This document shows, in pieces, positions 31,518 to 64,000 of a DNA stretch of 64,000 bases. Made by a program: the position numbers and the translations under genes. The notes under the pieces were generated by a model that was given only the letters and a program-made list of their open reading frames with translations, was not told where the DNA came from and made no database searches. Numbering within the stretch: position 1 is the first letter of the stretch; the number at the start of each line of letters is the position of its first letter. Location: positions 72,865 through 136,864 of IMG/VR virus record IMGVR_UViG_3300026521_000527; one strand, written 5' to 3'. Origin of the DNA: a virus.

Positions 31518-31773
31518 CCAAAGTCTCCGAATTTGGTAATGACTTTTTCAGAATATACTGATAGAATTCATCAATTTCTGATTGAAGAAAATTAACCCTC
31601 GCTCTTTTTATAATAGTAGTTTTATTCCAATGAAGTTTAATTATATTCTCTGGATAAAGCTTAGATATTTTAGTGGGTATTTTAGATTGATCAACATATT
31701 CAATATCTACTTGATAAATTGAATCATTTATAAATTTCGAGTAGATCATGATACATGTGCTCCACTGATACAT
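31510..31773 (-). CDS. Possible small hypothetical protein
   Basis: Fills the gap between the beta-prime C gene and 30999-31517; start uncertain. Confidence 0.4.
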   Translation of the reverse strand: MYQWSTCIMIYSKFINDSIYQVDIEYVDQSKIPTKISKLYPENIIKLHWNKTTIIKRARVNFLQSEIDEFYQYILKKSLPNSETLDD

Positions 31774-33697
31774 CAGTTGATTTTGTATAAATTTTACTAA
31801 TAGCTCTATTACTAAAATTATAAAAAATACTTAATTTTGGATCTAGCATTTCTATAATATTTTTTAAAGCGATTTGTCTAGTCGGTTCCTTATCACTATA
31901 TCTATAAAGAACATCATCTTCATCATAATATAAAAGACTTATAATAAGTTCTAGATAAACACTTAAAATATCATTTTGCTCTATAACAACTGATAATTTA
32001 TCATATAAAACAGAAGGGTCTATTAAAGCAGCTCCATCTCTATTTTTATCAATTAAAGATGTAATTGAGTTTAATGTTTTAACTGAATCATCATTAAAAG
32101 GTTGATTAATTACATTAAATATTAGAGTTATTTTGGACTCTTCTTTAGAAATATCTATTTCAATATCATCATCTGTATAAATATTTTTTAAATAATTTAA
32201 TATATATTCTAATTGATCTTCAAGAGTTCCAATTGACTCATTTTCTTTTTCCAAAATAATTTCTTTCTCTGAAAATTTAGCTTCTCTTAAAATACTTAGA
32301 AGTTTTTTATCCTCAGTTGCAATAAAAGCTCCACCAAAATGGTGAGTCCTAAGAACGGATTGTATAATACCCTCAGATAATCCTGATCCAATAATTGCCC
32401 CTAAGTTTACACTATCCGGTATCTTTGAACCAAAACATTTTTTACAGATTTTATATCCACTATGTTTACATGTAATTGGACTCCTTATTAAGATATCTAG
32501 ACCAATCAGAGATTCATCATTAATATCTATTTTTTCTTCCTGTCCAGTAGAGTCATTAAACCACCATCTATGATTTAAAAGCTCAAGGATTGTTTTATTC
32601 TTAATATTTATTTTAAAATACTTATCAGTTCCGCAATCTTCAAGATCTTTATCCAGTTTTAAAATACCCGTGGTGAAGAAGAATTTTCTTTGTAGTTCGC
32701 CTCCTTTTGGAATTGCTTCCTGTCTTTGAGCCAGCGCCAATCTAGCGCTATCTCCTGTCATAAAATACTCTTCTTCCGTTAAACCATCAAGTAAAGAATT
32801 TTCAATATTTGCTTTAAACGCTTTTCCATAGATATCCGTAGGAATACCAGTATTCGATGCAGCCTTCAGTAATTGAACCGATTTTAATCTTGCCCCACTA
32901 TTGAATACAAGATTCAATATATTATTGGGATCTTCTTCCACTGTATTTTTAACCTTTTCAAAAAGTATTAAATTTTGATGAAACGCTAAAAATGGTTCTT
33001 CTTTAAATAAACTACTTCGTATATCATCTATTTCTTTATTACCAACTGCAAAATCTTTCAAATCGAAAGAAGGATTGCAGTGTGTTATAACTGTACTGCA
33101 TTCTAAAAGAAATTTATCAAACTCATGTATATTCAACCAGAAGTCAAACTCAATGCCTCTTGAATTTAAATCTTGAACTATAGCCCAAAATCTCTCAGTT
33201 AACTTTAAAAGATTTTTTTTATTTAGAACGCCATCTTTTTCAATTTCGTAGAATGGCTCACCGAGCAATTCCACAGAATTTTCCAATTCACCGAATAAAG
33301 AAATATGGATTAACCATTCAATATAAGAAAGAGTTCTATTGAACTCTTTGATGTGAAATTGTCTACCAGGTTCTGATTCAACCAAATTAATATCAGCAAC
33401 TAGTTCATCTAATGTATTTAATTCAACTATTTCTCTATCTGGGAATTGAGCTAGATTTTCTTTTGCTCGCAAAGTTAACATAAAAGCACTATAAATTGAT
33501 TCATGTTCATAGTCAATTAATAATTTATCCATGTGCTCAAATTCAATAAGATTTTTCACAAAGGCGTACTTAAAATCAGCTCGTGCTTGTTTTGAATGCA
33601 TAGCGGCTGCAATAACATTATCACCATCATGATCACTATTATCAAATTGTGACATTAAATTTGATTTCTCAATTACTTGATTGCTTCCTATAATCAT
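31724..33697 (-). CDS. Phage RNAP set A, beta-prime C-terminal part with the catalytic loop
   Basis: NSDHDGD (NADFDGD variant), bridge-helix-like EYF...SARLALA...GGELQRKF, DCGT, RSPITC..C..C and trigger-loop-like SE...QSVLRTHH.GG. Confidence 0.9.
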   Translation of the reverse strand: MIIGSNQVIEKSNLMSQFDNSDHDGDNVIAAAMHSKQARADFKYAFVKNLIEFEHMDKLLIDYEHESIYSAFMLTLRAKENLAQFPDREIVELNTLDELVADINLVESEPGRQFHIKEFNRTLSYIEWLIHISLFGELENSVELLGEPFYEIEKDGVLNKKNLLKLTERFWAIVQDLNSRGIEFDFWLNIHEFDKFLLECSTVITHCNPSFDLKDFAVGNKEIDDIRSSLFKEEPFLAFHQNLILFEKVKNTVEEDPNNILNLVFNSGARLKSVQLLKAASNTGIPTDIYGKAFKANIENSLLDGLTEEEYFMTGDSARLALAQRQEAIPKGGELQRKFFFTTGILKLDKDLEDCGTDKYFKINIKNKTILELLNHRWWFNDSTGQEEKIDINDESLIGLDILIRSPITCKHSGYKICKKCFGSKIPDSVNLGAIIGSGLSEGIIQSVLRTHHFGGAFIATEDKKLLSILREAKFSEKEIILEKENESIGTLEDQLEYILNYLKNIYTDDDIEIDISKEESKITLIFNVINQPFNDDSVKTLNSITSLIDKNRDGAALIDPSVLYDKLSVVIEQNDILSVYLELIISLLYYDEDDVLYRYSDKEPTRQIALKNIIEMLDPKLSIFYNFSNRAISKIYTKSTDVSVEHMYHDLLEIYK

Positions 33698-33747: not shown

Positions 33748-34305
33748 TTAATGAGCAAAAAGCTCATTAAATACTTCAATATTATATTTCTTTTGAATAT
33801 CAAGAACCACATTTGGAATAACTGTCGTAACATTATTTATCTTTTTATTGGATTCAATATATATATTAATATGCTCCATCAATGTTGATAAATTATAAAG
33901 ACTATTGAATATTGGATTCCTATTATTTAAAAATGCAGCAAATCCTACAAAAGCTTGCAAGCCAGCATAATTAAAATCAGCCGGCTTTAATTCAAAATCA
34001 GGAAAATATTCAAAGAAAGGTAATTTTATATCTCCTACAAAATCTTCAATATCTGCATTTGAAACACCGATATAAAAAGGTATTAAAAACAATCTATATT
34101 TTTTTCTCTTTAATTCAGTCTGCATTTTAAATTCTTCAATTAGTCTATCAACATTCTGATAAGTTTCTTTATCTATATATACAAAAGCTAAATCTGATAT
34201 TGTGACCACTTTAGAATCTATATCTGATTCAACTTCGAGTGCTTTTGAAACATTTTCAGTAATATCTAAAAAATCATTATAAGTCATATTTCTCCTTAAA
34301 TCCAC
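33748..34305 (-). CDS. Hypothetical protein between the beta-prime halves
   Basis: 185-aa ORF; the likely start is the second Met (MTYND) after AAGGAG. Confidence 0.65.
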   Translation of the reverse strand: MDLRRNMTYNDFLDITENVSKALEVESDIDSKVVTISDLAFVYIDKETYQNVDRLIEEFKMQTELKRKKYRLFLIPFYIGVSNADIEDFVGDIKLPFFEYFPDFELKPADFNYAGLQAFVGFAAFLNNRNPIFNSLYNLSTLMEHINIYIESNKKINNVTTVIPNVVLDIQKKYNIEVFNELFAH

Positions 34306-34591: not shown

Positions 34592-35923
34592 CTATTCCTC
34601 CAAATCATTTAAAAAATCATCAATTATTTCTTCATCATTTACTTCTGGATTCAGTTCTATATTGCCATCATCCTCCTCATAATTTAATTTATCGTCAATT
34701 AATTTTAAAATATCATTATCATCAAAAACATTGGCTAAAACATATCCTCCTATATTATATCGCCATAATGTTGGTTGCCTCTCAACTAAGAGTTTAAATT
34801 CACTGATGTGTTTTTCTAAAAACTCTTGGAAATCTTCATCACGAATATTTATTTGGAAATCTTTATCGAATGATTTATAAATATATTGAATAAAATCAAC
34901 TATTGAGATATTATTATCATTTATCGGATTATCTTGATATTTAGTATATAAATAATGCAATAATTCCGGAAGAAATAATTTTTTTACTGACGAAACATGA
35001 AGCCCGATTTGATATGGCCTGAGAGCTGGATTAGGCACTAAAACCGATCTTTGTGAAAACTCTACTGTTTTTCCAGTCAAGGCTTCTCGAATATAACTCT
35101 CTTTTTTTTGAAAATTAAATTCAAGTATTACTTCATAAATTTCATCAACAGTCTGTTGGTATTTATAAACGGTATACCCGAAAAAATCTGGGTTTGCTTT
35201 AAATAATTGATCGGACATATTTATATTTTTAGCCTTATTTTTAAGAATTTGGCTATAACTTTTGGTAATTGGATGGGGTAAAATTTTGGTAGGAGAGATT
35301 TTTATAATTTGACGACTACTTGGTGGAACCACCAAAACATAATCTAAAAATATATAATCCAAGAATTTTGGATTTACAACTAAAGTTTCAAATGAAGCCT
35401 GATAGCTTGGATGGGTTCTTAGGAACTCAAAGAGTGATTTTAAACTAACTATATCATAAACTGGTTGCTCAATTCTTCTTTCATTTGCTTTCATTCTAGA
35501 TTCTTTTACCAATCTATGTTTTTCAAGACTAAAGAAATAAGGAGCCTCTTTATTATTCTGGTAATCTTTTTTATTTAGTAGACTTTTTATAGCGACTTGT
35601 CCAAAAAACTGTTGCAAAACATTTTTGAAATTTGGGTTAACTACATAAATTCCATCTGGAAATTCTATTTTTGCAAATGTTGTTGTCCTATTATCTGTGG
35701 TACCGCAAAGAACATGACACTCTTCACAATACAATCCAGCGTTTTTCTTTCCAAATAGTTTATTGCATTGGCACCTAAATTTCTTAATTGGGCCAAATAT
35801 TTGCTCAGAATATAAACCATCCGGATGAAAAACCTCTTGTTTCACACTGGTATATATTTTTGGACTAGTTATGTCAACTAACTGATCTGAATTTTCATAA
35901 ATTTTAAAATTTAAATCTAACAT
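34592..35923 (-). CDS. Phage RNAP set A, beta-prime N-terminal part
   Basis: GLYSEQIFGP, Zn ribbon CQC..CEEC, VPP..R, GKTVEFSQRSV and RQPTLW (NRAPTLH equivalent); acidic tail. Confidence 0.9.
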   Translation of the reverse strand: MLDLNFKIYENSDQLVDITSPKIYTSVKQEVFHPDGLYSEQIFGPIKKFRCQCNKLFGKKNAGLYCEECHVLCGTTDNRTTTFAKIEFPDGIYVVNPNFKNVLQQFFGQVAIKSLLNKKDYQNNKEAPYFFSLEKHRLVKESRMKANERRIEQPVYDIVSLKSLFEFLRTHPSYQASFETLVVNPKFLDYIFLDYVLVVPPSSRQIIKISPTKILPHPITKSYSQILKNKAKNINMSDQLFKANPDFFGYTVYKYQQTVDEIYEVILEFNFQKKESYIREALTGKTVEFSQRSVLVPNPALRPYQIGLHVSSVKKLFLPELLHYLYTKYQDNPINDNNISIVDFIQYIYKSFDKDFQINIRDEDFQEFLEKHISEFKLLVERQPTLWRYNIGGYVLANVFDDNDILKLIDDKLNYEEDDGNIELNPEVNDEEIIDDFLNDLEE

Positions 35924-49278: not shown

Positions 49279-49768
49279 GATTATTTTCCTTAAAATATGG
49301 TTTCATATCAAGGTCAACAATTACTTCCTTTGAGTTCCAAATGAACCAAACAACTTTTTTATTTTTTTTATCAACAAGAGCTAAATTCTTATTGTGTTTA
49401 AAAAATGGAGTGTATCTATCTAAAATATTTTTAATATCTTTATCAGAAATAATTCTCTCTTTCTTTAATGCGTCAAGATATGTTTTAAAATGATCAAGAT
49501 AATTTTTAAGATTCAATATAGTATTCTTTTCTGACTCAAGGAAAGTTGGATTATATTTTTTTAAAAATTCTTTGACATTTGAATTGCTTTGTAATAAATC
49601 ATATTCGAGTTCTAAATGACTCTTTACTTTATGAGGAGCCGATTTTTTCTTCGGCTCCTCCTTAAAAAATACTTTTATATTCTTCTGCATATTCGAAGTA
49701 TATTTCTTTAAAAGATCTAATATTTTACCTTCCGTTAGTATTTCAATTCTATGATAATCTAGGCTCAA
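49271..49768 (-). CDS. Hypothetical basic protein
   Basis: 165-aa ORF overlapping both neighbours. Confidence 0.65.
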   Translation of the reverse strand: MSLDYHRIEILTEGKILDLLKKYTSNMQKNIKVFFKEEPKKKSAPHKVKSHLELEYDLLQSNSNVKEFLKKYNPTFLESEKNTILNLKNYLDHFKTYLDALKKERIISDKDIKNILDRYTPFFKHNKNLALVDKKNKKVVWFIWNSKEVIVDLDMKPYFKENNHE

Positions 49769-52700
49769 TTATTGCTCCTATAAAATAAGCTTCAATCAAT
49801 TGTTTAGTTTTTGATTGTTGCGAATCAACTTTAATATCACTTGTTACCGGCATCTGTCCTGTCTTAAGAATTGAATTCATTAGTTTTCTAGAACTTTCTT
49901 GATTATCTGATCTCATACCATGAAGCTCTTTAATCAAATGTCCTGGTTTTCTTGTACTCAAAGAGAATAAATCATATATTCCTATCTTAATTGCACCATT
50001 ACCAACTTTGGTACCACTTCTTCCTTGACCTGTAGTAAATTGTCTTTTTACCTTTAAGCTACCTCTAGTTGAACTCATAATTTTTGGAAAGTGCTCCAAA
50101 TAATAAATTTGAAGGATTCCTACCGGGACTGGTCTGTCAGTATAAATATCTTCTTCAGGAATATAAACTTTCTCATCAAGTGGGATTCCTAATATTTTGG
50201 CAGCCTCTTCGATATTTTTAATTGTCATTTTATTCTTATGAGGAGGAACCAGTAATGGAAATGCAGGTCTATTTAAAGGATCCGATTGATTAACATATTT
50301 TATAATTTCTGGTGTACTTTTACTGTCGAAGAAACCCATAACTTCATTAATTAAAAATTGGTCCGGACTTGCATCCATTGCACCAAATACACTTAAAATT
50401 AAACTTCTAGCTTTATCAATTTGCTTGGTTCCGATTAACTCTTTTACTTTTTTATTTAGATAATATACAACCTTACCACTATATAAATTTAAAATAATAC
50501 TTGGGTTTTTTCTCGAAATAATTGAAACTGGAGTTGGAATGAACTCAATATCCAATTTAGTGTCTAAAGATTTTGGATCCTTTCCCTTTGGAATCATATA
50601 TTGGATTGTACCTTTTCCTCCGGTTCCACCTAGAGTAAATTTACTACCTGATCTAATTTCATTTCGTCCTTCTATATAAACCTCAATTACAGCACCCTCA
50701 AATTCATGTCCATTAACCTTATGTCCACCGACAACCAACATCTGAGAATTCTCAACATTAGATGTACAATCTGCATATCGTTTATGATTATGTTTATATA
50801 ATTCACATTCTTTTAACTTCTCACGAATGTTTTTTGTAATTGAGTTCCATTTCTCGAGCACTTTCTTATCGATATTTTTATCATTTACTCTAATAATAAT
50901 ATCTTTAATTACACCACCCATTGAACGATAAATAACATTATTTCCAGAGAACTCGACTCCAGTTAATACAGTTTCACCTGAATCTGAATCATCGTTATAA
51001 TCTTCAAGATTGAAATTACTATCTTTATAATACGAACATAATATATCTCCTGGCTTCGTGTTTCGCCCAACGGTTAAAAAATCTTCTTTTATTTTGGCAC
51101 CAGTTGGAATAAGAATTGTAATTTTTTCGTGAATTTTATTAGTAAATTTATCTGTTAACTTACTAGAAACAACCCAACCATCTTCATAATTCATTCCACG
51201 ATATGACATTAAAGCAACAACTAGGTTCTTCCCTGGAGACATCTTTCCTGTTTTTAAACTATTGGTTGCAGCCAATACATCACCTTTAAAAACTTTCTGC
51301 CCTTCTTTAACCATAACATTATACTTAAGAGGCATGTAAATTCCACGCTTGGTCCTTGACCTCTTCTCTTTAATATTGTATCTGATTAATTCTCCGTCTT
51401 TCCCAATAATATTAATGTACTCTTTATCAATTGATTTTACTCGACCGTCCATTTTCGCTTTGATTGCGAATCGATCAGATACTAAATGAGGAACTATTGA
51501 TTCAAATCCAGTTTGCACAAGAGGTTCATCTGGATTATCTAATTGGACAAATTGGCTAAATTGTTGGTTACCCATAACTCTACGAGTTGTATCATCGTAC
51601 TCATAAAAAGGCAATAGACTCTCAGTCGCAGATAAATTTTCGAATGGATTTCTATCATTAGTAAAAGATTTAATTTGAATTGACCCAAATCTATCTTTAA
51701 TTGTTGCTTTATTAGTCAGTGTTTGGTTTAATCCAATTCCACCATATTCATTGGTGGTTGTCGCAGCCACCGTTCCGAAATATGATCTATTTAAATCTCT
51801 CTTTGGTAAAGTGACCTGTTCCTTTTTCATATTACCAATACCAGTTTTTGTAATCTTAGATGAAAGTAATAGTTCTTCAAGTGGATTTGTCGATTGTGTA
51901 AATTGAAACATACCACTACTCATCATCTCCTGAGTAATAAAATATGGATGAAGTTCTAACATGGCGTCGTAACCACTTCCACTATTCTTAACTCTTTTTA
52001 ATTTAGCTAAAGCTTTCTGAAGCATTTTATAACCAGCGTGAGAAATAGCCTCGGACATACGAATTCTTTGGGTACTTAAATCTTCGATTATTTCAACATC
52101 GGAGTTCAATAATAATTTTGGAACGTATTTTCCAAAAAGATCATAAATATCTGTTGGTATATTATACGTTTTTAAAATTTTTGAAGTGGTGTTATCAATA
52201 AAACTCTCAGTTGCTTCTCTTGTCTTTTTAACATATCGCCCATCACTACCTTTTAATTCAAAAAATGGATTATAAAGATCAGGATCATTTAGTTTTTTCT
52301 TAGTGGTTGGAAAAACCATAGATGCCCCAATACGAAGACCATTGATAAAATATTCCTCAGTTAAAGACGTTGAAAAAATTGCAAGATATTTTATTTTGGT
52401 ATCATCTATTTTTAAATTTAAAGCAGCGTCTTTATTTCTAACTTTGGCATATTGATATTTAATTCCAAGAAAATCTAGAGTATTAAGTAACCCTTTATTC
52501 ATTATAAAAAAATGAATCAGTGCTATTTCTTTAGCTTGCATTCTTAGGCCAAAATAAGGTTTAGAAGATTTTGATTTCAAATCAATTCTTGAATTTATAT
52601 GCTCCTTCGCGAAATTATTCCAAAGGTTCATTATGAACTCAGTTATATGCTCTTTTGGAAAATGATTCTCATCTCCCTCTTTGGTTTTATAATGAACATC

Positions 52701-54548
52701 TTCTGATGTTGGTGAAATATAAGCATATTCAATTAATTCCCTATTTTTATATAATTTATAAAACTTGAATTTTTTAGGACCATCTTCAAAAGGATTCTTT
52801 TCAACAGCATCCTTATAATTTAATTCATATATAAGTCCATCAGAGACCATCTCAACATCAAAAAATATATCATTAGGTACTGATTTTGGAATATTATATT
52901 TTTCTTTAAAGAAGTCAATTTCATCTTTCGTATAATTATTAGATGATTTAATTTTTTTCAAACCCTCGAGTTTCTTTTTGAAATTTATAAGAATATCACC
53001 TTGATTTTTTTGCTCTGTAATCCCATGACTTTTCAATGTTATAGCTGATGTTGAATAGTGAGTATACACACGAACTATATTCGGTTTAACCTTAATAACT
53101 GGTTTTGGGAAAAATTGATTTGTCATAATATAATTTCCAGAATTCAGTTTTAAATATTTACCTTGAGCTGGATAAGGAATATGGAACTTTACAGTATAAG
53201 GTTTAGTGTTGCCGAACTCTTTATGTTGAATTTTTATTTTGAATGTTTTAAAACGATCTTTATAATTATCAGTGATTTCAGAACTTATTCCAAGAATTTT
53301 TATTTTTAAATCAGGATCGGATTCTAATGATTTAATTAAATCATACATTGCTTCATCTAGGTTTTGGTCAAACTCTGAACTTTGTCTACCATACGCGTGA
53401 AAATCATTAAATCCTATTATTTTTAATGGATCAAAATATGTATTTGTGGCTGATGCCACTGATTTTGGATTAACTGTAATAACACCATTGTACTTTTTAT
53501 TTAATTCTTTTATTTCACTTGAAATTTCTTCTATTGATTTTGAGTTCTTTTGAACTGTTTTATCAATCTTTTCTTTCACTTTATTATCTTTAGAATCTGA
53601 TTGCTCTTTAGTAATAATTGAACTATGTTTATTATATACATATTTCAATTTTTCCTCAATAGTTTTACCTTTAACAACTTTTGAAGTATTTAAAATATGC
53701 TTAATTGCTTCAATGGGATGTTCATTTAACTCATCTGATTGAACTTTGCTTGACGTTTCCGCACGAAGAGACTTTTTGCGCAACGAGTTTAAATTATGTA
53801 AAATATCAATATCATTTTTTATATTTAATATTTCTTCATCTGGATTAACTTCTTCTTGTGTTATATTTTGATTATGAACCTCTTTAAAAAATCTAGTAAT
53901 AATATTCATATTTATTTTTAAATACGGTCCATCTTTATCTTCTTCGATTGTAGTGATTGGCCAATATCTTCCTGAACCTATGAACACAACACCGTCTATA
54001 TTTTTTAAGCGAATTTTATTTTGTATCATTCGGCTATAATATAAAAAAGTTTCTGCAAAAGTGTCAGTTTGAACATCATTATTATCAATTATCAAATACA
54101 CTTCTTTATCGGGTGATGTTGTTTTACTATCTTTTGCGAAAGAATCAACTAGTGTTAAAAATGACTCCATTGTTTGTCTTTTTGATCTGGTTTTAATCAA
54201 ATTTGAAAATAATTCTGAAAGTGGAGTCAAGTCAACAATAACACTTTGCTGTTCTTTCTGGGCACGCATAAATTTTTTCTGAATTCTTATCTGTGGTATG
54301 AATTTTTTTGCGTCTTTGAAGTAAACATTAGTGAATACTTTTTTCCCCAAGAAATTAAAAGCAGGGGGTATTAGAATATAATCCCAGAAATTTTTTTTCC
54401 TATATTTCTGAATAAATTGAATACCTTTATCATCGATAGAGTACTCTGGGAAATATATTAAATTCGCCCCGATATTTTTATCGTTTCTAAACATAATGTT
54501 TGATGTAGGTATTTTATTTTTTATAACAGTAGATATCTTTAACATCAT
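49749..54548 (-). CDS. Phage RNAP set B, unsplit beta subunit with an N-terminal extension
   Basis: YFGTV...TNEYGGIG, SATESLLPF.E.DD..R..MGNQQ..Q, GKNL.VA.M...GMNYEDG, GSKF...GGKGTI, P.SIISR.N and LEH. Confidence 0.92.
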   Translation of the reverse strand: MMLKISTVIKNKIPTSNIMFRNDKNIGANLIYFPEYSIDDKGIQFIQKYRKKNFWDYILIPPAFNFLGKKVFTNVYFKDAKKFIPQIRIQKKFMRAQKEQQSVIVDLTPLSELFSNLIKTRSKRQTMESFLTLVDSFAKDSKTTSPDKEVYLIIDNNDVQTDTFAETFLYYSRMIQNKIRLKNIDGVVFIGSGRYWPITTIEEDKDGPYLKINMNIITRFFKEVHNQNITQEEVNPDEEILNIKNDIDILHNLNSLRKKSLRAETSSKVQSDELNEHPIEAIKHILNTSKVVKGKTIEEKLKYVYNKHSSIITKEQSDSKDNKVKEKIDKTVQKNSKSIEEISSEIKELNKKYNGVITVNPKSVASATNTYFDPLKIIGFNDFHAYGRQSSEFDQNLDEAMYDLIKSLESDPDLKIKILGISSEITDNYKDRFKTFKIKIQHKEFGNTKPYTVKFHIPYPAQGKYLKLNSGNYIMTNQFFPKPVIKVKPNIVRVYTHYSTSAITLKSHGITEQKNQGDILINFKKKLEGLKKIKSSNNYTKDEIDFFKEKYNIPKSVPNDIFFDVEMVSDGLIYELNYKDAVEKNPFEDGPKKFKFYKLYKNRELIEYAYISPTSEDVHYKTKEGDENHFPKEHITEFIMNLWNNFAKEHINSRIDLKSKSSKPYFGLRMQAKEIALIHFFIMNKGLLNTLDFLGIKYQYAKVRNKDAALNLKIDDTKIKYLAIFSTSLTEEYFINGLRIGASMVFPTTKKKLNDPDLYNPFFELKGSDGRYVKKTREATESFIDNTTSKILKTYNIPTDIYDLFGKYVPKLLLNSDVEIIEDLSTQRIRMSEAISHAGYKMLQKALAKLKRVKNSGSGYDAMLELHPYFITQEMMSSGMFQFTQSTNPLEELLLSSKITKTGIGNMKKEQVTLPKRDLNRSYFGTVAATTTNEYGGIGLNQTLTNKATIKDRFGSIQIKSFTNDRNPFENLSATESLLPFYEYDDTTRRVMGNQQFSQFVQLDNPDEPLVQTGFESIVPHLVSDRFAIKAKMDGRVKSIDKEYINIIGKDGELIRYNIKEKRSRTKRGIYMPLKYNVMVKEGQKVFKGDVLAATNSLKTGKMSPGKNLVVALMSYRGMNYEDGWVVSSKLTDKFTNKIHEKITILIPTGAKIKEDFLTVGRNTKPGDILCSYYKDSNFNLEDYNDDSDSGETVLTGVEFSGNNVIYRSMGGVIKDIIIRVNDKNIDKKVLEKWNSITKNIREKLKECELYKHNHKRYADCTSNVENSQMLVVGGHKVNGHEFEGAVIEVYIEGRNEIRSGSKFTLGGTGGKGTIQYMIPKGKDPKSLDTKLDIEFIPTPVSIISRKNPSIILNLYSGKVVYYLNKKVKELIGTKQIDKARSLILSVFGAMDASPDQFLINEVMGFFDSKSTPEIIKYVNQSDPLNRPAFPLLVPPHKNKMTIKNIEEAAKILGIPLDEKVYIPEEDIYTDRPVPVGILQIYYLEHFPKIMSSTRGSLKVKRQFTTGQGRSGTKVGNGAIKIGIYDLFSLSTRKPGHLIKELHGMRSDNQESSRKLMNSILKTGQMPVTSDIKVDSQQSKTKQLIEAYFIGAIIEPRLS

Positions 54549-55811: not shown

Positions 55812-56972
55812 TTATTCGCAGTATTGAAAAATATCTTTAGTTAAATCAATTTTTGCTTTATTTAATGATAATCCAGTATGTGCTGCTTTTAATGTAAGTG
55901 ATGTAAGCATATTCGCTTGTGAAGTACTGGCTAATAAACCGATATTATCTCCAGGACCGATATTCATTTTCTTAGCAAAATCCGGATTATAACACGTCAT
56001 ACATACACCATCTTCCGCAGTACAATATAACGGACTCCTAAGATTTATATCTGTATTAATTAAATCAGTATCTTTTTCAGTAATTTGCTTTAATCTGCCA
56101 ACTGAAACATAATTTCGCCCAATAAATGAATTAAAATTATCTTCAGTAATTCTAATCTTTAGAGTTCTTTTAGTACCACAATCATATGTTTTTGATAATG
56201 TAACTCCACTCATTAATGTATTTAATTTACGAATAAGATATCCAGGAATTGCTGTTTCAACTGATTTTTTATATTGAGATACCATCGCTTGTGAACTATA
56301 ATTAAAAAATTGGGTTTGTGTTAAACCTTCAGTATGACTTCTAGTAATTACATCATTAATATCACCTGAACTATTAATACTTAAACCGATACTAATTAGA
56401 AGTTTACGAATATCACCAGTCCCTCCTTTAGCTCCACTATCAATTAAATCAACAACTGGATATAAATCATGATGTTTTCTAAAGTATTCGAGCACTTCAT
56501 CTGCCAATTTATCAAAAGCTTTATCTGCGTTAATTAATGCTTCCTCATAATTTTTTTCTTTATTTTTATTAAATTCATCAAGAATCTTTTGCTTCTTGGG
56601 GATAAATTCTTCGGGTAAAGTTAATGATGCAGTGCTAAATGAACTTGGTTGAAAACTACTTAAAAAGAACCCAGCTCTTGTAAACATTACATATCGGTGC
56701 TGAAATTCATCAGCACCAAATACTTTATACATTTCATCAAGAACTTTTTTAATTCCCTTTTTATTTAGCACAATATCTATATTTATTTTATTATTAAATA
56801 TATATTTTTTAAGAAGTAATTTTACTAAATTTGAATTCAGTACTCGATTGCGTCTATAATCTTCTTTTATTTTAGAACTAAATTCTTCAAAATCCTTCTT
56901 TACGAAACCAGGTTCTTTAAATTTATCGGGAATTATTAAACCCTCCGATAAAATTTCAGCGTTTTGAAACAT
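55812..56972 (-). CDS. Phage RNAP set B, beta-prime C-terminal fragment (bridge helix to trigger loop)
   Basis: SGAKG, EGLT..QFF...S....Y.KS.ETA.PGYL.RKL, DCGT, RSPLYC..C..CY and SQA...SLTLK..HTG. Confidence 0.9.
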   Translation of the reverse strand: MFQNAEILSEGLIIPDKFKEPGFVKKDFEEFSSKIKEDYRRNRVLNSNLVKLLLKKYIFNNKINIDIVLNKKGIKKVLDEMYKVFGADEFQHRYVMFTRAGFFLSSFQPSSFSTASLTLPEEFIPKKQKILDEFNKNKEKNYEEALINADKAFDKLADEVLEYFRKHHDLYPVVDLIDSGAKGGTGDIRKLLISIGLSINSSGDINDVITRSHTEGLTQTQFFNYSSQAMVSQYKKSVETAIPGYLIRKLNTLMSGVTLSKTYDCGTKRTLKIRITEDNFNSFIGRNYVSVGRLKQITEKDTDLINTDINLRSPLYCTAEDGVCMTCYNPDFAKKMNIGPGDNIGLLASTSQANMLTSLTLKAAHTGLSLNKAKIDLTKDIFQYCE

Positions 56973-57105
56973 CTAAACTCCTTTTATAAATCGAATCCAT
57001 CGTTTTTATCACTAATTTATTTTTAGGTATATTTATTATATAATCATTATCTTCGTAAAGTTTATTCGAATCTTCTTTAACTGGAATAAAATTTGAATTA
57101 AAACT
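56956..57105 (-). mobile_element. Split intein N-fragment (IntN, 49 aa)
   Basis: Begins S-F immediately after GGD, where the DxDGD motif breaks off; SFNSNFIPV...VIKTMDSIY resembles intein block A. Confidence 0.7.
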
Positions 57106-58227
57106 ATCTCCACCAAGTGGTGAATAATAAATACTATTAATAATAATTTCATAAGATATTCCTGTTCGAATGATCGGTTTTAAACAGTGAAATGAATCAG
57201 CATTCCAACCTGGATCCCGTTTTAGGAGAACTCTTAAATGTGGATTTAAATTAAATACATCAATCAAGACTTGAATCCAAATATTTGATTTTTCTTTATG
57301 GTGTTCTAAATAAACATCAACATTCCTATAAATAAAATCAAATATTTCACCGAACTCTTCTGAGTACATTTCCTGAACACCTAATTTTTTAGCGTATTCT
57401 TGATTTTCATCCTGCTGTAAAAAACCAACAACATAAACATCGAAAACATTTAAAAGAATATGCCAAGGGATTGCTACACAATCAACTGGAATATCAGGTC
57501 TAGCATTCGCAACCATTCTTGCAACATTATCCAGACGCTTTCCAGCTAATGCGTTTCTAAAGAAACCTCTTTTCGATTCAAGATTTTTTATAAAATATTG
57601 ATATAATTGATTTACTTGTTTTTGAATATTCTCTTTCTTGGTGCTTCCAGAGGCCTCTAAAAAAGAACTACTAAAACTATTCCCTGATTCTGTTCCAGTT
57701 AATATTTTTTTATAAATTTCATCTATCTCATTATCTTTAATGATTTTACCTGTAGTGTCCGCCTCACGATACACTACAGGTATTACTGGAACTTTATCAA
57801 TAATTAATAAATTCTTTTGACTTCTTTTTATAAAGTCAATAAATAATTTATTCTTTTCTGTCTTGTATTTATTAAAATTTATACTATCCCAGTTTTCAAT
57901 CAACCAAGATAATCCAGTATTGCCATTTTCGTTAGGAATTAATACTCCATCTTCTATAGCGAATTTTGCTTTTTTATTAAGTACCTTATTAAAAACTGTA
58001 TTTACTTTACTTAGATTTTTATAAATTAATGGATGTAATATAACATTTTTTAAATCAATGTATCCATAATTTTGAAACTTATCTTTAGTTGAAATTCCAA
58101 ATATAGTTTTTGATTGGAGTCCATCGGGTGTTGGTTCGAAATCCCTATCAAAAGATATTGGATTAGATACTCGTTCGGCATGTTTCTCTTTAATGAATTT
58201 ATCAACATCTAGTATTTTAAACGCCAC
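56956..58227 (-). CDS. Phage RNAP set B, beta-prime N-terminal fragment fused to a split-intein N part
   Basis: DGL.S..IFG, YGYIDL, VPVIP..YR, G.FR.AL.GKR.D..AR, LLKRDP and III....YSPLGGD, followed by a 49-aa tail that begins with Ser. Confidence 0.88.
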   Translation of the reverse strand: MAFKILDVDKFIKEKHAERVSNPISFDRDFEPTPDGLQSKTIFGISTKDKFQNYGYIDLKNVILHPLIYKNLSKVNTVFNKVLNKKAKFAIEDGVLIPNENGNTGLSWLIENWDSINFNKYKTEKNKLFIDFIKRSQKNLLIIDKVPVIPVVYREADTTGKIIKDNEIDEIYKKILTGTESGNSFSSSFLEASGSTKKENIQKQVNQLYQYFIKNLESKRGFFRNALAGKRLDNVARMVANARPDIPVDCVAIPWHILLNVFDVYVVGFLQQDENQEYAKKLGVQEMYSEEFGEIFDFIYRNVDVYLEHHKEKSNIWIQVLIDVFNLNPHLRVLLKRDPGWNADSFHCLKPIIRTGISYEIIINSIYYSPLGGDSFNSNFIPVKEDSNKLYEDNDYIINIPKNKLVIKTMDSIYKRSLDVSKR

Positions 58228-58240
58228 TATTAACTCCTAT

Positions 58241-61090
58241 TTATATTTTCTTTAATTCTGGGGCAACTAACCCACTTGTTTCTGTATGAACAACCGCTGT
58301 ATTTTCTTCAACTTCAGCTTCAAGACTACTTTCTTCAACATGTTTATTAATCTCAGGGAATTTTTTAAGAAGAATATTTTCAACACTAACCGCATTTTTT
58401 ACTTTTTCTTTATTTATAACTATAAATACATCTTCTTCTGTTACTTGAATGCTGATACCAAATTCATCCAAATGATTGACTTGAATATAATGTTGAATTG
58501 AGGTTTTAACTTTATAATTCATTGATTGCAAATATCTATTGATTAAAGTCAATGATAATTTTCCGCTTGATCTAAATTGATTCTGAATAATATTTAATAA
58601 TTCAAGATTCGAAGTCAATATGCTTGGATCACTGACATTCTCATTCAATTGTAACGCAATGTCTTCCCACTCTCTATTAATTAATTTCATTACTAGATTT
58701 CCAAAAGGGTGCATTTTCATTATCTGTTCCCAGAATTGACCATTTTTATTATTAGCCATTGTCATATCTTTAGATAATTCTGTTTTATAAACAATTGCCC
58801 AGAAATCAGCTAATTCAGTTTTAACTAACTCAATAAATTGATCTATCGTTAATCCCCAAGTTGAACATGCTCTGAGTAAAGAGATTTCATTTTTAAAGTA
58901 TGTAATTCTTCTATCCATCGCTGGGTGTCTAACCGGAACATCACCATTTGAAAAGAATAAAAAGTTAAAATGTCTATCTTTATTTGAAGCATCAACGCCT
59001 TTTTTCTCAATAAGAATTTTTGAGTTTCCTGTTAATAATTTTAACTGATCGACTTCTTTTCCTGAACTAAAATCACCTTCATCAAGCACAATGAGATTTG
59101 CGGTCTCAAGGACCGAGTTAAAATTATTCATGATTCTATCACCGTTTAGAATTTTAACGTACTCATTATTTAAATAATAATCCATAATAGTAGATACAAA
59201 AAGGTTTTTTCCAGCACCTTGTACCCCAAATATAACTGGCACTGTTGGCATAACTTTAAATTTACTAACTGCACTTAACCAGTTAATAAACCATTCAATA
59301 TCGCCTTTTTGAACCAGTTGTAAAATATAATTATAAGTCCAAGGGCATCTGTCTTGAATCATTTCGATTGATTCAGTTAAATTATAATTTTCAGTGTATT
59401 CTTCTTCCACTAATTTATGAACTCTTTTATATCTTTCATTCGGTACCCAGAGGTTTACGAATTTTATAAATTGCTTTTGGAAGAGAGTTGGTTTACCTGG
59501 TCGGAACTCTTCAAAAGCTTCAATTAGTATGCTTTGCTGGAAACTTTCAATGAACATTTCAATTAGCTGTTTATCAGCGTCATAAACATTAAGTTGATTT
59601 GTCAACACATGTGTAGCTAACATTTTCGGGCCATCGAAAATGAAAGACTCTCCTGAATCGATATGTCTTACAATACATGTTCTATTTTTATTAGCCAGTC
59701 TATAATAAACATAATTTTCGGTATCAACTCTTTTTATTAATTCTTCTATAATTTCTTGAACTTCGAGGTTCTGGAAATTCTTTCTTTCTGTCTTCCCTAG
59801 TTTAATTTTAGATTTTTCCGATATTTGACTCAACGCTGTTGATTTTGGAATGTCGAAAAGTTTCATCCAAAATGATACTAAATTATAAGTCTTATCATCA
59901 TGAAAATCTTTAAAAACATCAATTAGATCATTTTCGTAGAAAGCCATGCTTGGATTCTGTTCCTCATGGAAAGGACAATATAATTTAGTGAGGTTTCCTG
60001 TTGTCGCCCCAATTTTAACTTCACCTGCTAATAAATCAAGAGCTCTTATTCCAACTTCTTTCATTTTTGTCAAAAGGTCGTACTCAACAGACTGAAGTTC
60101 CGATGGTTTTATAATAGTACGACTTGCTTGCATTTTAGCTGTCATTAAATTATTTTGAACTTCGATTGTATCCAGAGCTTTATTTCTACTAATTAAAAAA
60201 TCATCTTGTATTTTTCTAAGTTCATTTGCGTAGAGTTTTTTACGATCTTCGATATGCAATGATTCATTCATTCGATTGATATTTGACTGAATTAGATTTA
60301 CTATATCTGAATCACTTAAATTAAAAATATCTATAAATTTTGCTCTAGTCCCGTACTTTTGATTTATTACCCCAGCTACTCTTTGAACATGAGATATATC
60401 CGAAAATGTTGGATCTATATCAAATTCAACTGTTTGATAATCATCTACACCAAGAATTACTGTCTTCCAATCAAGTTTTCCTATTACATTTTTCAAAAGA
60501 CCAAATAATTTATCAGCCTCTGATTTATTTAACTCTTTATCAAAATCAAATATTAATTGAAGTCCTCCTCCAGTTAACATTGCACCAACTGGTTTTACTG
60601 GGTCAATCCCATGCTGTATAAATTTTTTATTTATTTGATTCCAGGCTTGCATTATTGAAATCTGGATTTGGTCTTCACTGATAAATGGATTACCAAGTTC
60701 AAAACGATTTTTAGTACGGTTGATATGTGTATCAATATCAACAGCAATTCTTTTGGTTCTTTTAAAAGTTTTTATACTCGGGCGTGTATCTTTTTCGTAT
60801 TGAAAAATTGCAGCCGAGATAGAAATACCAACGTCAAGATTTTTATTTCTACTTTGGAGATTATTAATGTACTCAGCTAATTGAATAACATTATTTATTT
60901 GAAGTGTCTCTGTAATGTATCCGAATTTTCCGTACTCACCATTCGCTTCTTTTATTTGGCGTACTATTCTGATTGTTTCGTCAGAACCAACACCATTCGG
61001 GTATAATGTATTCCAATAATCTATTAATTCATTAGTGTATATATCAACACCTTTTGGTGTTTTAACTGGAGCAGGTAGTTGTATTTGCAT
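58241..61090 (-). CDS. AEP-type primase, Zn-finger-like domain and D5/SF3 helicase fusion
   Basis: VDID, TGGGLQ, CPFH.E..PS, GVQGAGKN, VLDEG and FFSN. Confidence 0.85.
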   Translation of the reverse strand: MQIQLPAPVKTPKGVDIYTNELIDYWNTLYPNGVGSDETIRIVRQIKEANGEYGKFGYITETLQINNVIQLAEYINNLQSRNKNLDVGISISAAIFQYEKDTRPSIKTFKRTKRIAVDIDTHINRTKNRFELGNPFISEDQIQISIMQAWNQINKKFIQHGIDPVKPVGAMLTGGGLQLIFDFDKELNKSEADKLFGLLKNVIGKLDWKTVILGVDDYQTVEFDIDPTFSDISHVQRVAGVINQKYGTRAKFIDIFNLSDSDIVNLIQSNINRMNESLHIEDRKKLYANELRKIQDDFLISRNKALDTIEVQNNLMTAKMQASRTIIKPSELQSVEYDLLTKMKEVGIRALDLLAGEVKIGATTGNLTKLYCPFHEEQNPSMAFYENDLIDVFKDFHDDKTYNLVSFWMKLFDIPKSTALSQISEKSKIKLGKTERKNFQNLEVQEIIEELIKRVDTENYVYYRLANKNRTCIVRHIDSGESFIFDGPKMLATHVLTNQLNVYDADKQLIEMFIESFQQSILIEAFEEFRPGKPTLFQKQFIKFVNLWVPNERYKRVHKLVEEEYTENYNLTESIEMIQDRCPWTYNYILQLVQKGDIEWFINWLSAVSKFKVMPTVPVIFGVQGAGKNLFVSTIMDYYLNNEYVKILNGDRIMNNFNSVLETANLIVLDEGDFSSGKEVDQLKLLTGNSKILIEKKGVDASNKDRHFNFLFFSNGDVPVRHPAMDRRITYFKNEISLLRACSTWGLTIDQFIELVKTELADFWAIVYKTELSKDMTMANNKNGQFWEQIMKMHPFGNLVMKLINREWEDIALQLNENVSDPSILTSNLELLNIIQNQFRSSGKLSLTLINRYLQSMNYKVKTSIQHYIQVNHLDEFGISIQVTEEDVFIVINKEKVKNAVSVENILLKKFPEINKHVEESSLEAEVEENTAVVHTETSGLVAPELKKI

Positions 61091-61126
61091 AATTTTCCTT
61101 TGTATTAATGTATGTTAATTTATAAA

Positions 61127-62473
61127 TTATATTGTGTTTATCGAAAGCTGTAGTTTATCTTTTACTCTTTTGATTCTATCTTGGAGTTCTTTTCTTCTGA
61201 GTTCTTCGTGTTGTTGTCTAATTAATCCTAATATTTTAACTTTAAAACTTCTAGAAGTTGAATAAGAATCGTAACCATAACGTTCTCTACATGTAGCTTT
61301 AGATTTCTCTTGGAACTCTGGTGTTTGCATAAACCAGTCGGCTCCATACCATTCGCGATTTGTGGCTTTAGATTTCTCTTGAAATTCTGGTAGCCTACTT
61401 TTATATTCATCCGATTGAGAATAATGTTCGGCACCATAACGTTCTCTACATGTAGCTTTAGATTTCTCTTGAAATTCTGGCAACCTACTTTTGTATTCTG
61501 ATGTTTGCGCAAACCAGTCGGCTCCATACCGCTCGCGATTGGTCTTAATTGTTTTAATTCGGTATTCTGGTAATTTGGATTCGTATTCATCCGATTGAGG
61601 ATACCAGTCAACATTATAACGCTCTTGGTTAGTAGCTTTAATTTTATTAATTATTTCTGACATTTGACTTTGAATACGTTCTTTATATTCTGGCGTTTGC
61701 GCAAACCAGTCGACACCATATCGCTCATGATTTGTGGCTTTTATTTTTTCATTATAAAACTGCTGATGTTTCTTACGGTGCTCTGAATTTAAATAATTCA
61801 TCGAACCGTAATTTTTAAGAGAGGTTTGCTTTTTCTTTTCTTTTATAAAATCAGCTTTTGAAATATTATCAACCCCATATTTTTGAATAAAAGTTTGCTT
61901 TTTCTTTTCTTGGAGTTCAGCTGAATCATTCGGATTCCTGACTCCGTAATTTTTATAAAGAGTTTCTTCTTTTTGCTTCTTTATTTCATCAAGCATAGAA
62001 ATATTTCTAACGCCGTATTTTTCTTCTATTGATTGCTCAAGAGTTCTTGTTAACTCTTTATCTTTAAACTCTTTATGGATTTTTTTATCAGCAGTATTTA
62101 ATTGCTTTATATCACAATATTTTGAAAAGCCGTAGTCTTTATTTAAAAAAGTTCTTGGGTGATCACATCCGGGTACCAAACATTTGAAATCATCTTTAGT
62201 GATATTAAACTCAATAAATTTTCTTCGAACACTTAGCTTAGTATCTGTTGGAAGATAATTGGTCCGTTTGATCAATAAATCAGCTAGAAAAATAAATAGT
62301 TTTTGCTTATCTTTTCTCCAACTTTTTGAAAGAGTTCCACGAAATAAACCAGTCGTTGAGCTAATAAAACCAGCTTTCGTTAATTCATCAATTATGTCAA
62401 TACTCTCAGAACCCATCTTTTCGACGGATTCTTTTAGTTTATTTAGTTGCGTTGTATAATCCAAGGGCTGCAT
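61127..62473 (-). CDS. Homing-endonuclease-associated repeat protein (ERYG repeats), no nuclease domain recognised
   Basis: C..PGC...YC ribbon followed by many K.TN.ERYG.DW..Q..E repeats. Confidence 0.7.
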   Translation of the reverse strand: MQPLDYTTQLNKLKESVEKMGSESIDIIDELTKAGFISSTTGLFRGTLSKSWRKDKQKLFIFLADLLIKRTNYLPTDTKLSVRRKFIEFNITKDDFKCLVPGCDHPRTFLNKDYGFSKYCDIKQLNTADKKIHKEFKDKELTRTLEQSIEEKYGVRNISMLDEIKKQKEETLYKNYGVRNPNDSAELQEKKKQTFIQKYGVDNISKADFIKEKKKQTSLKNYGSMNYLNSEHRKKHQQFYNEKIKATNHERYGVDWFAQTPEYKERIQSQMSEIINKIKATNQERYNVDWYPQSDEYESKLPEYRIKTIKTNRERYGADWFAQTSEYKSRLPEFQEKSKATCRERYGAEHYSQSDEYKSRLPEFQEKSKATNREWYGADWFMQTPEFQEKSKATCRERYGYDSYSTSRSFKVKILGLIRQQHEELRRKELQDRIKRVKDKLQLSINTI

Positions 62474-63686
62474 CTAATTTTATCCCCCAGTTTTGAACAC
62501 TAGCATCGTTTAAACTTAAGAATTTTTCTTTGGACTCAGGACCGAACTTTTGACTACACTCGGATGCCGCAGATAGAGTTAAAAGTCCTACTACTCCAAG
62601 TACGTCACCATCCGAATTAGCATTTAACGGAGTAATCGGGAGCATATAGTTATTCGCTGTCGGATCTTGCATCGTCAAATCATACATTATTGTATTATTA
62701 ACTTCAATAAATACTAAGTCTATCACTGGGATTAATTCAAGATTCTCATGATTTACATTTGAATAAAAATCATCAGCCTCTGTTGACGAATAAAGAATTT
62801 CTTCTACTTCTTCTGAAGTTGTACTTAACTTTTTGACAGTAATTTTACCTTCGTCTTCACAGAAATACCAACGATATTCTTTAAAAAATTTAGGATGTAA
62901 ACTAGAAATTCTTTTAAATTTTATCGGTAATTTAAACCGAATATGCTTGTATTCATTGACATTTCTGATACTATATTGTGCACCCAATATATTTAAAATA
63001 TATGTAAAGTTATATAGGTTTATATAATTTTTTATATATAAACGATTGGCTTTTTTAATTAATCCATCAAGAATTCCTACTAAAAATTCAGGATTTGAAT
63101 TCAAAAGAATGTCTTTATTTATATTAATTCTACCAGCTTCATCCTGCCGAACGATTAATTTTAATTCTTCGAAGAAATCAGGATACTCTAATTTTTTAAT
63201 TCTGTAGCTCTTTTGATTCGGGCCTGTCTGAACCAAATCAATTTTATTTATGAAATCCCCGATATCATAACCAAATTCATAATTTAATTTAATTGTAATT
63301 TCTTTTTCTATATCCTCATGGCTAGTCGAACCTTTTTTAATTACATTTATTTCAGTATTATCTGATACTTGATTTAAATTATAAATTAAAAATTTATTTG
63401 AATTATTATTAGCGACTTCAGAAATATTCAGTGGTTTTATTGTATCTGTATTCGGGCAATAAAACATTAAGCTATTTTTTTCACCAACGATAAAATTTGT
63501 CTTTTTATTAAAATAACCAACATTACATCTATTATTTTTACCGAAATCATTCTTCGAAAGAATCTGGTAACCTTTTTGAACATTGTGCTTAAAAATAGTA
63601 GTTGATTCCTGATTAATAACTACTGGTAGTCTATCTTGTCTTATACTTCTGCTCTCTATTTTTGCCGGTCTAGAATCTAATTTCAT
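62439..63686 (-). CDS. Split intein C-fragment (357 aa, LAGLIDADG remnant) fused to a 58-aa RNAP beta-prime catalytic C-extein
   Basis: Block F YDLTM..NNY and block G LNAN|S. The extein SDGDVLGV..LLTLSAASE...DAALGLYNAT parallels the bacterial DGDQMAV..LTLEAQ.E...DVVLGLYY.T. Confidence 0.85.
   Translation of the reverse strand: MKLDSRPAKIESRSIRQDRLPVVINQESTTIFKHNVQKGYQILSKNDFGKNNRCNVGYFNKKTNFIVGEKNSLMFYCPNTDTIKPLNISEVANNNSNKFLIYNLNQVSDNTEINVIKKGSTSHEDIEKEITIKLNYEFGYDIGDFINKIDLVQTGPNQKSYRIKKLEYPDFFEELKLIVRQDEAGRININKDILLNSNPEFLVGILDGLIKKANRLYIKNYINLYNFTYILNILGAQYSIRNVNEYKHIRFKLPIKFKRISSLHPKFFKEYRWYFCEDEGKITVKKLSTTSEEVEEILYSSTEADDFYSNVNHENLELIPVIDLVFIEVNNTIMYDLTMQDPTANNYMLPITPLNANSDGDVLGVVGLLTLSAASECSQKFGPESKEKFLSLNDASVQNWGIKLDAALGLYNATK
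62616..63686 (-). mobile_element. Split intein C-fragment (IntC) with a degenerate LAGLIDADG domain
   Basis: YEFGYDIGD (block C-like), FLVGILDG (block E-like) and ILNILG..YSI (block H-like); terminal Asn followed by +1 Ser. Confidence 0.8.
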
Positions 63687-63802: not shown

Positions 63803-64000
63803 CCGATGTAAACATTTGGCTTTTGTAAAATATACTCTATTAAAAATTACAAAGAGTTATGTTCCAACATAACTCAAGCCGATGTAAACATTTGGCTTTT
63901 GTAAAATATACTCTATTAAAAATTTATTTGAGTGCGAGTTAACTCGCACTCAAGCCGATGTAAACATTTGGCTTTTGTAAAATATACTCTATTAAAAATT
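63803..64000. repeat. Direct-repeat array: 46-bp repeat x3 with 30-nt hairpin spacers (truncated by the window end)
   Basis: ccgatgtaaacatttggcttttgtaaaatatactctattaaaaatt at 63803, 63879 and 63955. Confidence 0.95.

Follow-up and report, generated by a model that had tools for sequence, protein, structure and literature searches.

In the cyanobacterial Ssp and Npu DnaE systems, two separated genes each encode part of the catalytic subunit of an essential polymerase, and their products are joined by protein trans-splicing through a split intein. The host there is a cellular DNA polymerase, the split lies at the canonical site, yielding a long N-terminal part (IntN) and a C-terminal part (IntC) of ~36 amino acids (aa), the nucleophiles are Cys1 and Cys+1, and there is no endonuclease domain. 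Other natural inteins, namely PolB16 OarG, AceL/GOS TerL and VidaL, have a short IntN and are atypically split near the N terminus, upstream of block B. PolB16 OarG consists of 15 + 168 aa and uses Ser1 and Ser+1 (Pasch et al. 2023, PMC10189870), and only two members of the cysteine-less, atypically split class have been characterised (Pasch et al., PMC10189870). In the fractured genes of environmental phages (gp41-1, NrdJ-1, IMPDH-1 and others), the N-terminal half of the split intein comes first, a free-standing endonuclease gene follows and the C-terminal half comes last (Dassa et al. 2009, PMC2677866), and no RNA polymerase (RNAP) is listed among the hosts in that study. Here we analyzed a 64,000-nucleotide stretch of viral DNA, hereafter called the window (positions 72,865 to 136,864 of IMG/VR record IMGVR_UViG_3300026521_000527), in which a real, conserved, atypically split and cysteine-less intein interrupts the beta-prime N subunit of a multisubunit RNAP. 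We consider it likely that functional trans-splicing completes the DxDGD loop of this subunit.

The closest architecture to that of the window intein is found in PolB16 OarG, and the closest biological role in the DnaE split intein. As in PolB16, TerL and VidaL, the split lies near the N terminus, upstream of block B, and as in PolB16 the intein is cysteine-less (Ser1/Ser+1). It differs from these three in its host, an RNAP beta-prime subunit, in its site, the catalytic DxDGD loop, and in the dimensions of its parts, i.e., an IntN of 49 aa (34-87 aa in the family) and an IntC of 357 aa that includes a LAGLIDADG-type domain. In addition, a primase-helicase gene separates the IntN gene from the IntC gene, which is located upstream, and the block B His is apparently replaced by Ser. 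With DnaE it has in common that the catalytic subunit of a polymerase is distributed over two genes, joined, in our case by inference, through trans-splicing, whereas the split site, the Cys1/Cys+1 pair, the endonuclease domain and the type of host polymerase distinguish the two. The fractured genes resemble our locus in being metagenomic phage genes broken by split inteins with homing endonuclease genes (HEGs) nearby. However, the order here is C-then-N, the endonuclease-like domain is part of IntC, and a free-standing HEG-like gene occurs only occasionally. The window intein would work like known naturally split inteins and differs from them in its host protein and site, its 49 + 357 aa split, the conserved C-before-N gene order around a replication gene and its non-canonical catalytic residues.

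The window represents the final 64 kb of a 136,864-bp virus contig, which is AT-rich (about 29% GC), carries nearly every gene on the minus strand and has its strongest DNA match in a hydrothermal-vent metagenome. The contig starts inside an open reading frame (ORF) and was estimated by CheckV to be 49% complete, i.e., to cover about half a genome. It stems from an uncultured hydrothermal-vent jumbo phage with two multisubunit RNAPs, and both RNAP gene sets (A and B) are found inside the window. The beta-prime N subunit of set B matches PHROG 2986 ('RNA polymerase beta subunit', E 3e-39). Its closest isolate homolog is AR9 g145, annotated as the N terminus of the virion RNAP beta-prime (31% identity, E 3e-25), and Pfam Rpb1_1 is matched by 28 of the 98 members of the beta-prime N family.

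The gene for set B beta-prime N, ORF 56956-58227 (minus strand, 423 aa), encodes a 374-aa extein that ends in ...YYSPLGGD at the first Asp of DxDGD (57106..58227), followed by a 49-aa tail, SFNSNF..., that starts with Ser375 (IntN, 56959..57105; stop codon at 56956-56958). A second gene, ORF 62439-63686 (minus strand, 415 aa), encodes the complementary parts. Its first 357 aa, up to Asn357, comprise Hint-fold parts with an embedded LAGLIDADG-type domain and end in ...YDLTMQDPTANNYMLPITPLNAN, the last residues being LNAN (IntC, 62616..63686). They are followed by a 58-aa extein, SDGDVLGV...LGLYNATK, corresponding to the remainder of the DxDGD loop plus the C terminus of beta-prime N (62442..62615; stop codon at 62439-62441). 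Translation of both ORFs thus reproduced what a preliminary description of this DNA had reported, namely a beta-prime sequence switching after YYSPLGGD to a 49-aa tail with an initial Ser, and an intein end, LNAN, preceding SDGD...LGLYNATK. That description had also stated that no set B ORF contains DxDGD, which proved correct; in the whole 136.9-kb contig, the only sites of this type in RNAP context are the DHDGD of set A and the N|SDGD junction.

When residues 1-374 are fused in silico with the 58-aa piece, a 432-aa product results that reads ...PLGGD-SDGD... (predicted junction peptide ...SPLGGDSDGDVLG...), and it is only in this product that set B has a contiguous DxDGD. The intein-free homologs P0179, P0181, P0182 and P0185 are contiguous in this region, with GMDYDGD, GGDYDGD or GADFDGD where the window protein has GGD|S, and they end about 65 residues past the loop with an ...LY.xTK-like sequence. 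Residues 363-432 of the spliced product align across the junction with the C termini of these homologs (E 1e-4 to 1e-3), an alignment that the unspliced beta-prime N ORF does not give, and the C terminus of AR9 g145 ends like the spliced product. This indicated that the 58-aa piece is the missing end of beta-prime N and that the boundary with beta-prime C is the usual one. The proposal that the 58-aa piece fills the gap before the next fragment, at 55812-56972, therefore holds, as the 432-aa product is colinear with the intein-free homologs and with the ending of AR9 g145.

We collected homologs of both halves. For IntC, the word index returned 71 proteins and an exhaustive profile search 75 cluster representatives, nearly all of them stand-alone and 350-466 aa long. 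The junction N|SDGD is present in 70/70 full-length IntC homologs, and N357, S358, D359, G360, D361, D336 of block F (YDLTM) and H34 are invariant in the family. Among 114 beta-prime N homologs, about 100 read P[LI]GGD|S... and carry tails of 34-87 aa, and Ser375, the Ser1 of the intein, is invariant in all 98 that were aligned. This recurrence of the junction residues is far beyond chance. About a hundred related phages from metagenomes have the split layout. The +1 position is Ser throughout the split family, as opposed to Tyr, Phe or His in intein-free enzymes, as would be expected if a nucleophile were required there.

Selection on the two parts of the beta-prime N gene was estimated by comparison with a 93%-identical relative. 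The dN/dS ratio was 0.034 for the extein, indicative of strong purifying selection, compared with 0.26 for the IntN tail, where most changes affect the last residues. These values bear on the idea that set B is decaying and that the intein halves are functionless remnants, which we regard as very unlikely. Beyond the broken motif itself nothing speaks for it, and against it stand the low dN/dS, the fact that all set B subunits are open and conserved, and the invariance of the junction and Hint residues down to 32-35% identity.

The fold of the 415-aa protein was addressed with an AlphaFold2 model built from 71 homologs (mean predicted local distance difference test [pLDDT] value 82). In a Foldseek search of the PDB, all 13 matches with E <= 1e-3 were intein-homing endonucleases (PhoVMA, 4.6e-9; PI-PfuI, TliVMA and PI-SceI). 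The top 50 entries retrieved by VIA were likewise all inteins or related Hint-fold domains (one Hedgehog, two BIL), with PI-SceI as the best match (Z 13.9, rmsd 4.2 Å, 265 aligned residues). VidaL, AceL NrdHF and the engineered 'Cat' intein were among the structural matches, and Npu and Ssp DnaE were found at Z 9-9.6. The matches stop at model residue ~357, the Asn that precedes SDGD and that corresponds to the last residue of the target inteins, and begin at residue ~18-41 of these, indicating that the IntC protein is devoid of the first ~20-40 residues of the Hint fold with its first strands. The isolated 49-aa IntN is modeled as four short strands and a helix, with a pLDDT of about 78.

Co-folding of the 415-aa protein with residues 340-423 of beta-prime N gave an interface score (ipSAE) of 0.73 (median of three runs), compared with 0.00 for the best of three controls. 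Among 80 solved complexes, 58 attain this ipSAE mark, as do 2 of 110 mismatched pairs. At least 63% of contacts were common to the runs, with a partner pLDDT of at least 60. In the predicted interface, residues 373-384 of the partner (Gly-Asp-Ser375...) lie on IntC residues 31-34, 70-73, 332-336 and 355-357, segments that include the invariant His34, Ser72, the block F YDLTM and the terminal Asn. The model thus supports binding of the IntN tail to IntC and completion of the fold, although its score may be due in part to the likeness of the pair to split inteins with solved structures.

The word-index search returned no longer, fused forms of the split proteins, which in itself was weak evidence, and the exhaustive profile search then revealed beta-prime N proteins of other phages (P0244, P0246, P0247, P0249 and P0250) in which an unsplit intein, 179-488 aa long and mostly starting with Cys1, occupies the very same position, GGD|xDGD. 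P0244 is a 915-aa protein that reads GGD|CVKGN...QCN|SDGD and matches Pfam Rpb1_2 (226-357) and LAGLIDADG_3 (639-711), and P0246, P0247 and P0249 contain mini-inteins of 179-205 aa. P0244, P0246, P0247 and P0249 share with the window intein the insertion point GGD|...N|SDGD, a similar block A (C/S-hydrophobic-x-G/S-N-I/F), the YDxT of block F, and SExxS where TxxH would be expected. They differ in forming one polypeptide, in their mostly Cys1 chemistry and in their size, and the similarity outside the extein is weak. Common descent of the split and unsplit inteins at this site appears likely.

Several observations weigh against a splicing intein. Sequence profiles do not recognise it: Pfam gave no match for the 415-aa protein, PF14890 was matched by only 1 of the 71 family members (E 6e-4), and the family profile found no intein among PDB sequences, so that the fold assignment rests on predicted structure. 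The ligated product is a prediction from in-silico joining, and the genome to which the window belongs is incomplete (~49%). Most members of the family have Lys as the penultimate residue, the window protein has Ala, and His occurs in 1/70. Finally, there is no invariant His at the expected TxxH position of block B. As to the penultimate residue, known active inteins also exist without His, and in Ssp and Npu DnaE this residue can be Ala, as in the ...AN|S of the window. As to block B, its His was conserved in all Ser1 inteins examined by Pasch et al. (2023, PMC10189870) and was dispensable in PolB16 (Pasch et al. 2023, PMC10189870). The Hint fold anticipated by the preliminary description was recovered by Foldseek and VIA with the AlphaFold2 model and not by Pfam or sequence profiles; the family is too divergent for current sequence models. 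A match of the family profile to an ITPase in the PDB was spurious, PHROG gave nothing useful for the 415-aa protein, and none of 50,697 phage records was matched by it in tblastn.

We examined which residue might occupy the block B position. The structural alignment with Npu DnaE has no target gaps from residue 22 onward, so that the counterpart of Npu His72 should not lie before model residue 54. From this alignment and from spacing, the block B position most plausibly corresponds to the invariant Ser72 (...GEKNSL...). The only invariant His of the family, H34, is usually preceded by Lys and is located 38 residues before Ser72. By analogy, it would fit better a K/R-His 'motif NX' than block B, this motif being specific to Ser1 inteins and, in PolB16, separated from the following block B by 41 residues (Pasch et al. 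2023, PMC10189870). Sequence alone gave an ambiguous placement: a pairing by MAFFT of the WSIH of cis-inteins with family residues 43-49, which set the His opposite D47, was rejected, because D47 takes no part in the predicted interface and positions before ~54 are incompatible with the Npu DnaE alignment. The residue set consisting of Ser1, the block F Asp, the terminal Asn and Ser+1 would fit a class 1 intein with oxyester chemistry.

In the mechanism that we propose, the split intein interrupts beta-prime N in the Mg-binding DxDGD loop, where GGD precedes and SDGD follows it. One gene makes extein(1-374)-IntN(49 aa) and the upstream gene IntC(357 aa)-extein(58 aa), and the 49-aa tail would supply the N-terminal strands without which the Hint fold of IntC is incomplete. 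Ser375 would perform an N-O acyl shift, Ser358 (+1) would attack in a transesterification, and cyclisation of Asn357 would yield the 432-aa subunit ...PLGGD-SDGD.... The physical association of the halves is predicted by the co-fold, and the splicing chemistry is what we infer for the pair.

Alternatively, the two halves might associate without ligation, holding the exteins together non-covalently or only cleaving, and the polymerase would work with a nick in its DxDGD loop. We consider this improbable. It would agree with the absence of the canonical block B and penultimate histidines and with the tolerance of jumbo-phage RNAP subunits for many natural breaks, including that of set A beta-prime just upstream of DHDGD; moreover, the co-fold speaks to binding only, not to chemistry. 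However, cleavage alone needs no +1 nucleophile, and yet Ser+1 occurs in 70/70 homologs where intein-free homologs have Y, F or H. The unsplit inteins at the same site, which must splice for their host protein to function, also have the unusual SExxS. Furthermore, an intein of ~400 aa at the catalytic loop should not fit the active-site cleft, as established RNAP structure indicates that the cleft should not accommodate an insert of that size there.

The trans-splicing reading is also in keeping with gene order. On the minus strand, the IntC gene is followed by genes for a 448-aa repeat protein (61127..62473) and for a 949-aa primase-helicase (58241..61090; Pfam DUF5906 and Zn_ribbon_DnaG, PHROG DNA primase), then by beta-prime N with IntN and by beta-prime C. 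The IntC gene is thus located 4.2 kb upstream of the IntN-bearing gene on the same strand, and genuine stop codons directly follow both the IntN tail and the C-extein. Because the IntC gene comes first, with one or two genes between the halves and real stop codons after them, there is no cis route to a single polypeptide, in agreement with what had been proposed initially. We compared 13 related loci from independent NCBI, ENA, JGI and IMG/VR assemblies. Eleven of them, at identities as low as 32-35%, show the succession IntC gene, primase-helicase, beta-prime N-IntN, beta-prime C; the remaining two, both from a single contig, have the beta-prime N-IntN gene 13 kb further downstream on the same strand. 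The position of the primase-helicase is the same in 13/13 loci.

The IntC gene lies 314 bp from the contig end, which falls in a high-copy repeat, and one might ask whether the permuted order is an assembly artefact that masks a contiguous gene. This is almost inconceivable in view of the identical order in the independent assemblies, of the genuine stop codons after both halves, and of overlapping unitigs from the source run, which cover the locus at a uniform depth of ~105x and span each of the gene boundaries. These data exclude an assembly error and indicate that the permuted order is old. Joints seen in run X3 (e.g., 57719 to 63490) had 21-nt sides at 90% likeness and were taken as cross-matches from other organisms.

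The genes of the cluster are closely spaced and overlap by 35 and 17 nt. Terminator prediction gave no site between genes, and the one weak site between the halves lies inside the beta-prime N ORF. The common strand, the tight packing and the lack of a predicted terminator between genes suggest that the two half-genes are probably expressed together. A scan for sigma-70 promoters remained at background (54 found versus 55.9 expected) and is uninformative for a phage with its own polymerases. A biofilm metatranscriptome (X5) contained a few short identical contigs, which lie on parts of the beta-prime C (56459-56644) and primase-helicase (59818-61008) genes only, an amount too small to call expression or to judge the IntC gene. 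The earlier suggestion that trans-splicing acts as a timing or assembly switch found no supporting feature in these co-oriented, tightly packed genes with no terminator between them. A broader proposal, which we put forward tentatively and think is more probably wrong than right, is that a large undescribed lineage of inteins, split and unsplit, occupies the DxDGD site of RNAPs, that its Ser1/Ser+1 members, without a block B or penultimate His, rely on the Lys-His 'NX' motif and the invariant Ser, and that the C-before-N order makes maturation of the virion RNAP depend on the meeting of two separately translated proteins, a post-translational checkpoint.

As the window's genome is incomplete, an intact copy of set B beta-prime N was sought in relatives. 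In a six-frame scan of a complete relative (G001, 281 kb, CheckV 100%), the only RNAP DxDGD sites were the DYDGD of set A and the N|SDGD junction. The beta-prime N profile had one match each in G001 and in a second relative (G002, CheckV 97%), and neither genome contains an extra DxDGD site. With a contig that is about 49% complete and starts inside an ORF, it could be imagined that an intact gene lies in the missing half of the genome and that the split pair is a redundant relic. This is hardly credible given the single profile match and the lack of an extra DxDGD in both relatives, the dN/dS of 0.034 for the extein and the retention of the pair in about 100 genomes. Hence, an intact DxDGD-bearing beta-prime of set B, which the preliminary description had named as a finding that would speak against it, was not present in the complete relative, while the window contig itself is ~49% complete. 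The core of that description, a split intein whose trans-splicing is needed to form DxDGD, is supported by the fold, the co-fold, the invariant junctions, the colinearity, the synteny and the lack of an intact copy, trans-splicing being the part that would follow from them. It was right about the split intein and had overlooked the LAGLIDADG-type domain, the atypical split near the N terminus and the absence of the block B and penultimate histidines.

The middle part of IntC resembles the LAGLIDADG endonuclease domains of PI-SceI, PI-PfuI and I-DmoI. One LAGLIDADG motif is seen (NPEFLVGILDG), at which the acidic position varies in the family (D/E/S/F/A/R/N), and no second motif is evident in IntC. 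The domain is thus probably degenerate and inactive, as far as its sequence can tell. Shorter stand-alone IntC variants of 249-347 aa also occur (P0220, P0229 and P0239, the last being 249 aa long with Thr+1). In AR9, the g145 gene (KU878088.1, 117800-123300; exons near positions 2442-2645 and 415-585 of this locus) contains a group I intron, which carries a Hef-like homing endonuclease, at GGDYD|GDTVSL, two codons from the intein site. Unlike the window intein, this element, which interrupts the same codons, is removed at the RNA level within a single gene. The split inteins, the unsplit inteins and the AR9 intron together identify the DNA that codes for DxDGD as a recurrent target of mobile elements.

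The 448-aa protein encoded between the IntC and primase-helicase genes is HEG-like and lies outside the intein (Pfam DUF7487, E 6e-30; PHROG 3339 'homing endonuclease', E 7e-28). Its gene is found at this position in one related locus (L001) and is absent from two others (L006 and L010), and in a fourth (L016) a copy is located between beta-prime N and C. It is therefore an occasional insert, with the variable presence expected of a free-standing mobile gene. The protein is made of DUF7487 repeats, and its gene has internal 90-bp DNA repeats at 61317-61528. Phage group II intron homing endonucleases are built of three to five repeated domains of ~60 aa (PMC12350094).

In the literature that was searched (including PMC2677866 and PMC7824862, most subscription journals being outside the search), we found no report of an intein in the beta-prime of a phage multisubunit RNAP. 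Should splicing be confirmed, the phage enzyme would, to our knowledge, be the first multisubunit RNAP with a catalytic metal loop built by protein trans-splicing. Such a mechanism would hold across a deep clade of uncultured jumbo phages rather than in one genome, and the DxDGD-coding DNA of jumbo-phage polymerases would represent a place where mobile elements have landed repeatedly. The cysteine-less, atypically split inteins would gain about a hundred natural variants, whose unusual set of catalytic residues is directly open to mutagenesis. For annotation, the consequence is that such polymerases look 'inactive' to motif-based pipelines and that the intein is invisible to Pfam.

The remaining RNAP genes of the window are all on the minus strand. 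In set B, the beta-prime C subunit (55812..56972; Pfam Rpb1_5, E 5e-7; PHROG 3015 and 2962) overlaps the IntN gene by 17 nt, and the beta subunit is a single ORF of 1599 aa (49749..54548; PHROG 3148, E 2e-57; Pfam Rpb2_6). In the complete 281-kb relative (G001:C1:16747-22934), beta matches in two blocks, query residues 1-567 and 587-1598, ~1.5 kb apart, which suggests an insertion (an intron, an intein or a HEG) that is absent from the single 1599-aa ORF of the window. The beta-prime of set A is also encoded in two pieces, N (34592-35923) and C (31724-33697, 657 aa), and is split elsewhere than that of set B, as the C piece begins ~20 residues upstream of an intact DHDGD (near position 33634). 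A 185-aa ORF with no assigned function (33748-34305) lies on the same strand between the two pieces.

Directly upstream of the IntC gene, the contig ends in a tandem array of 76-bp units (63803-64000, 2.6 copies), each with a conserved core of 48 nt and a GC-rich hairpin with a T-run on the minus strand. Its unitig depth of ~1000x, compared with ~105x in the flanks, means that the array is much longer than assembled or common to other phages, and it probably caused the break of the contig.

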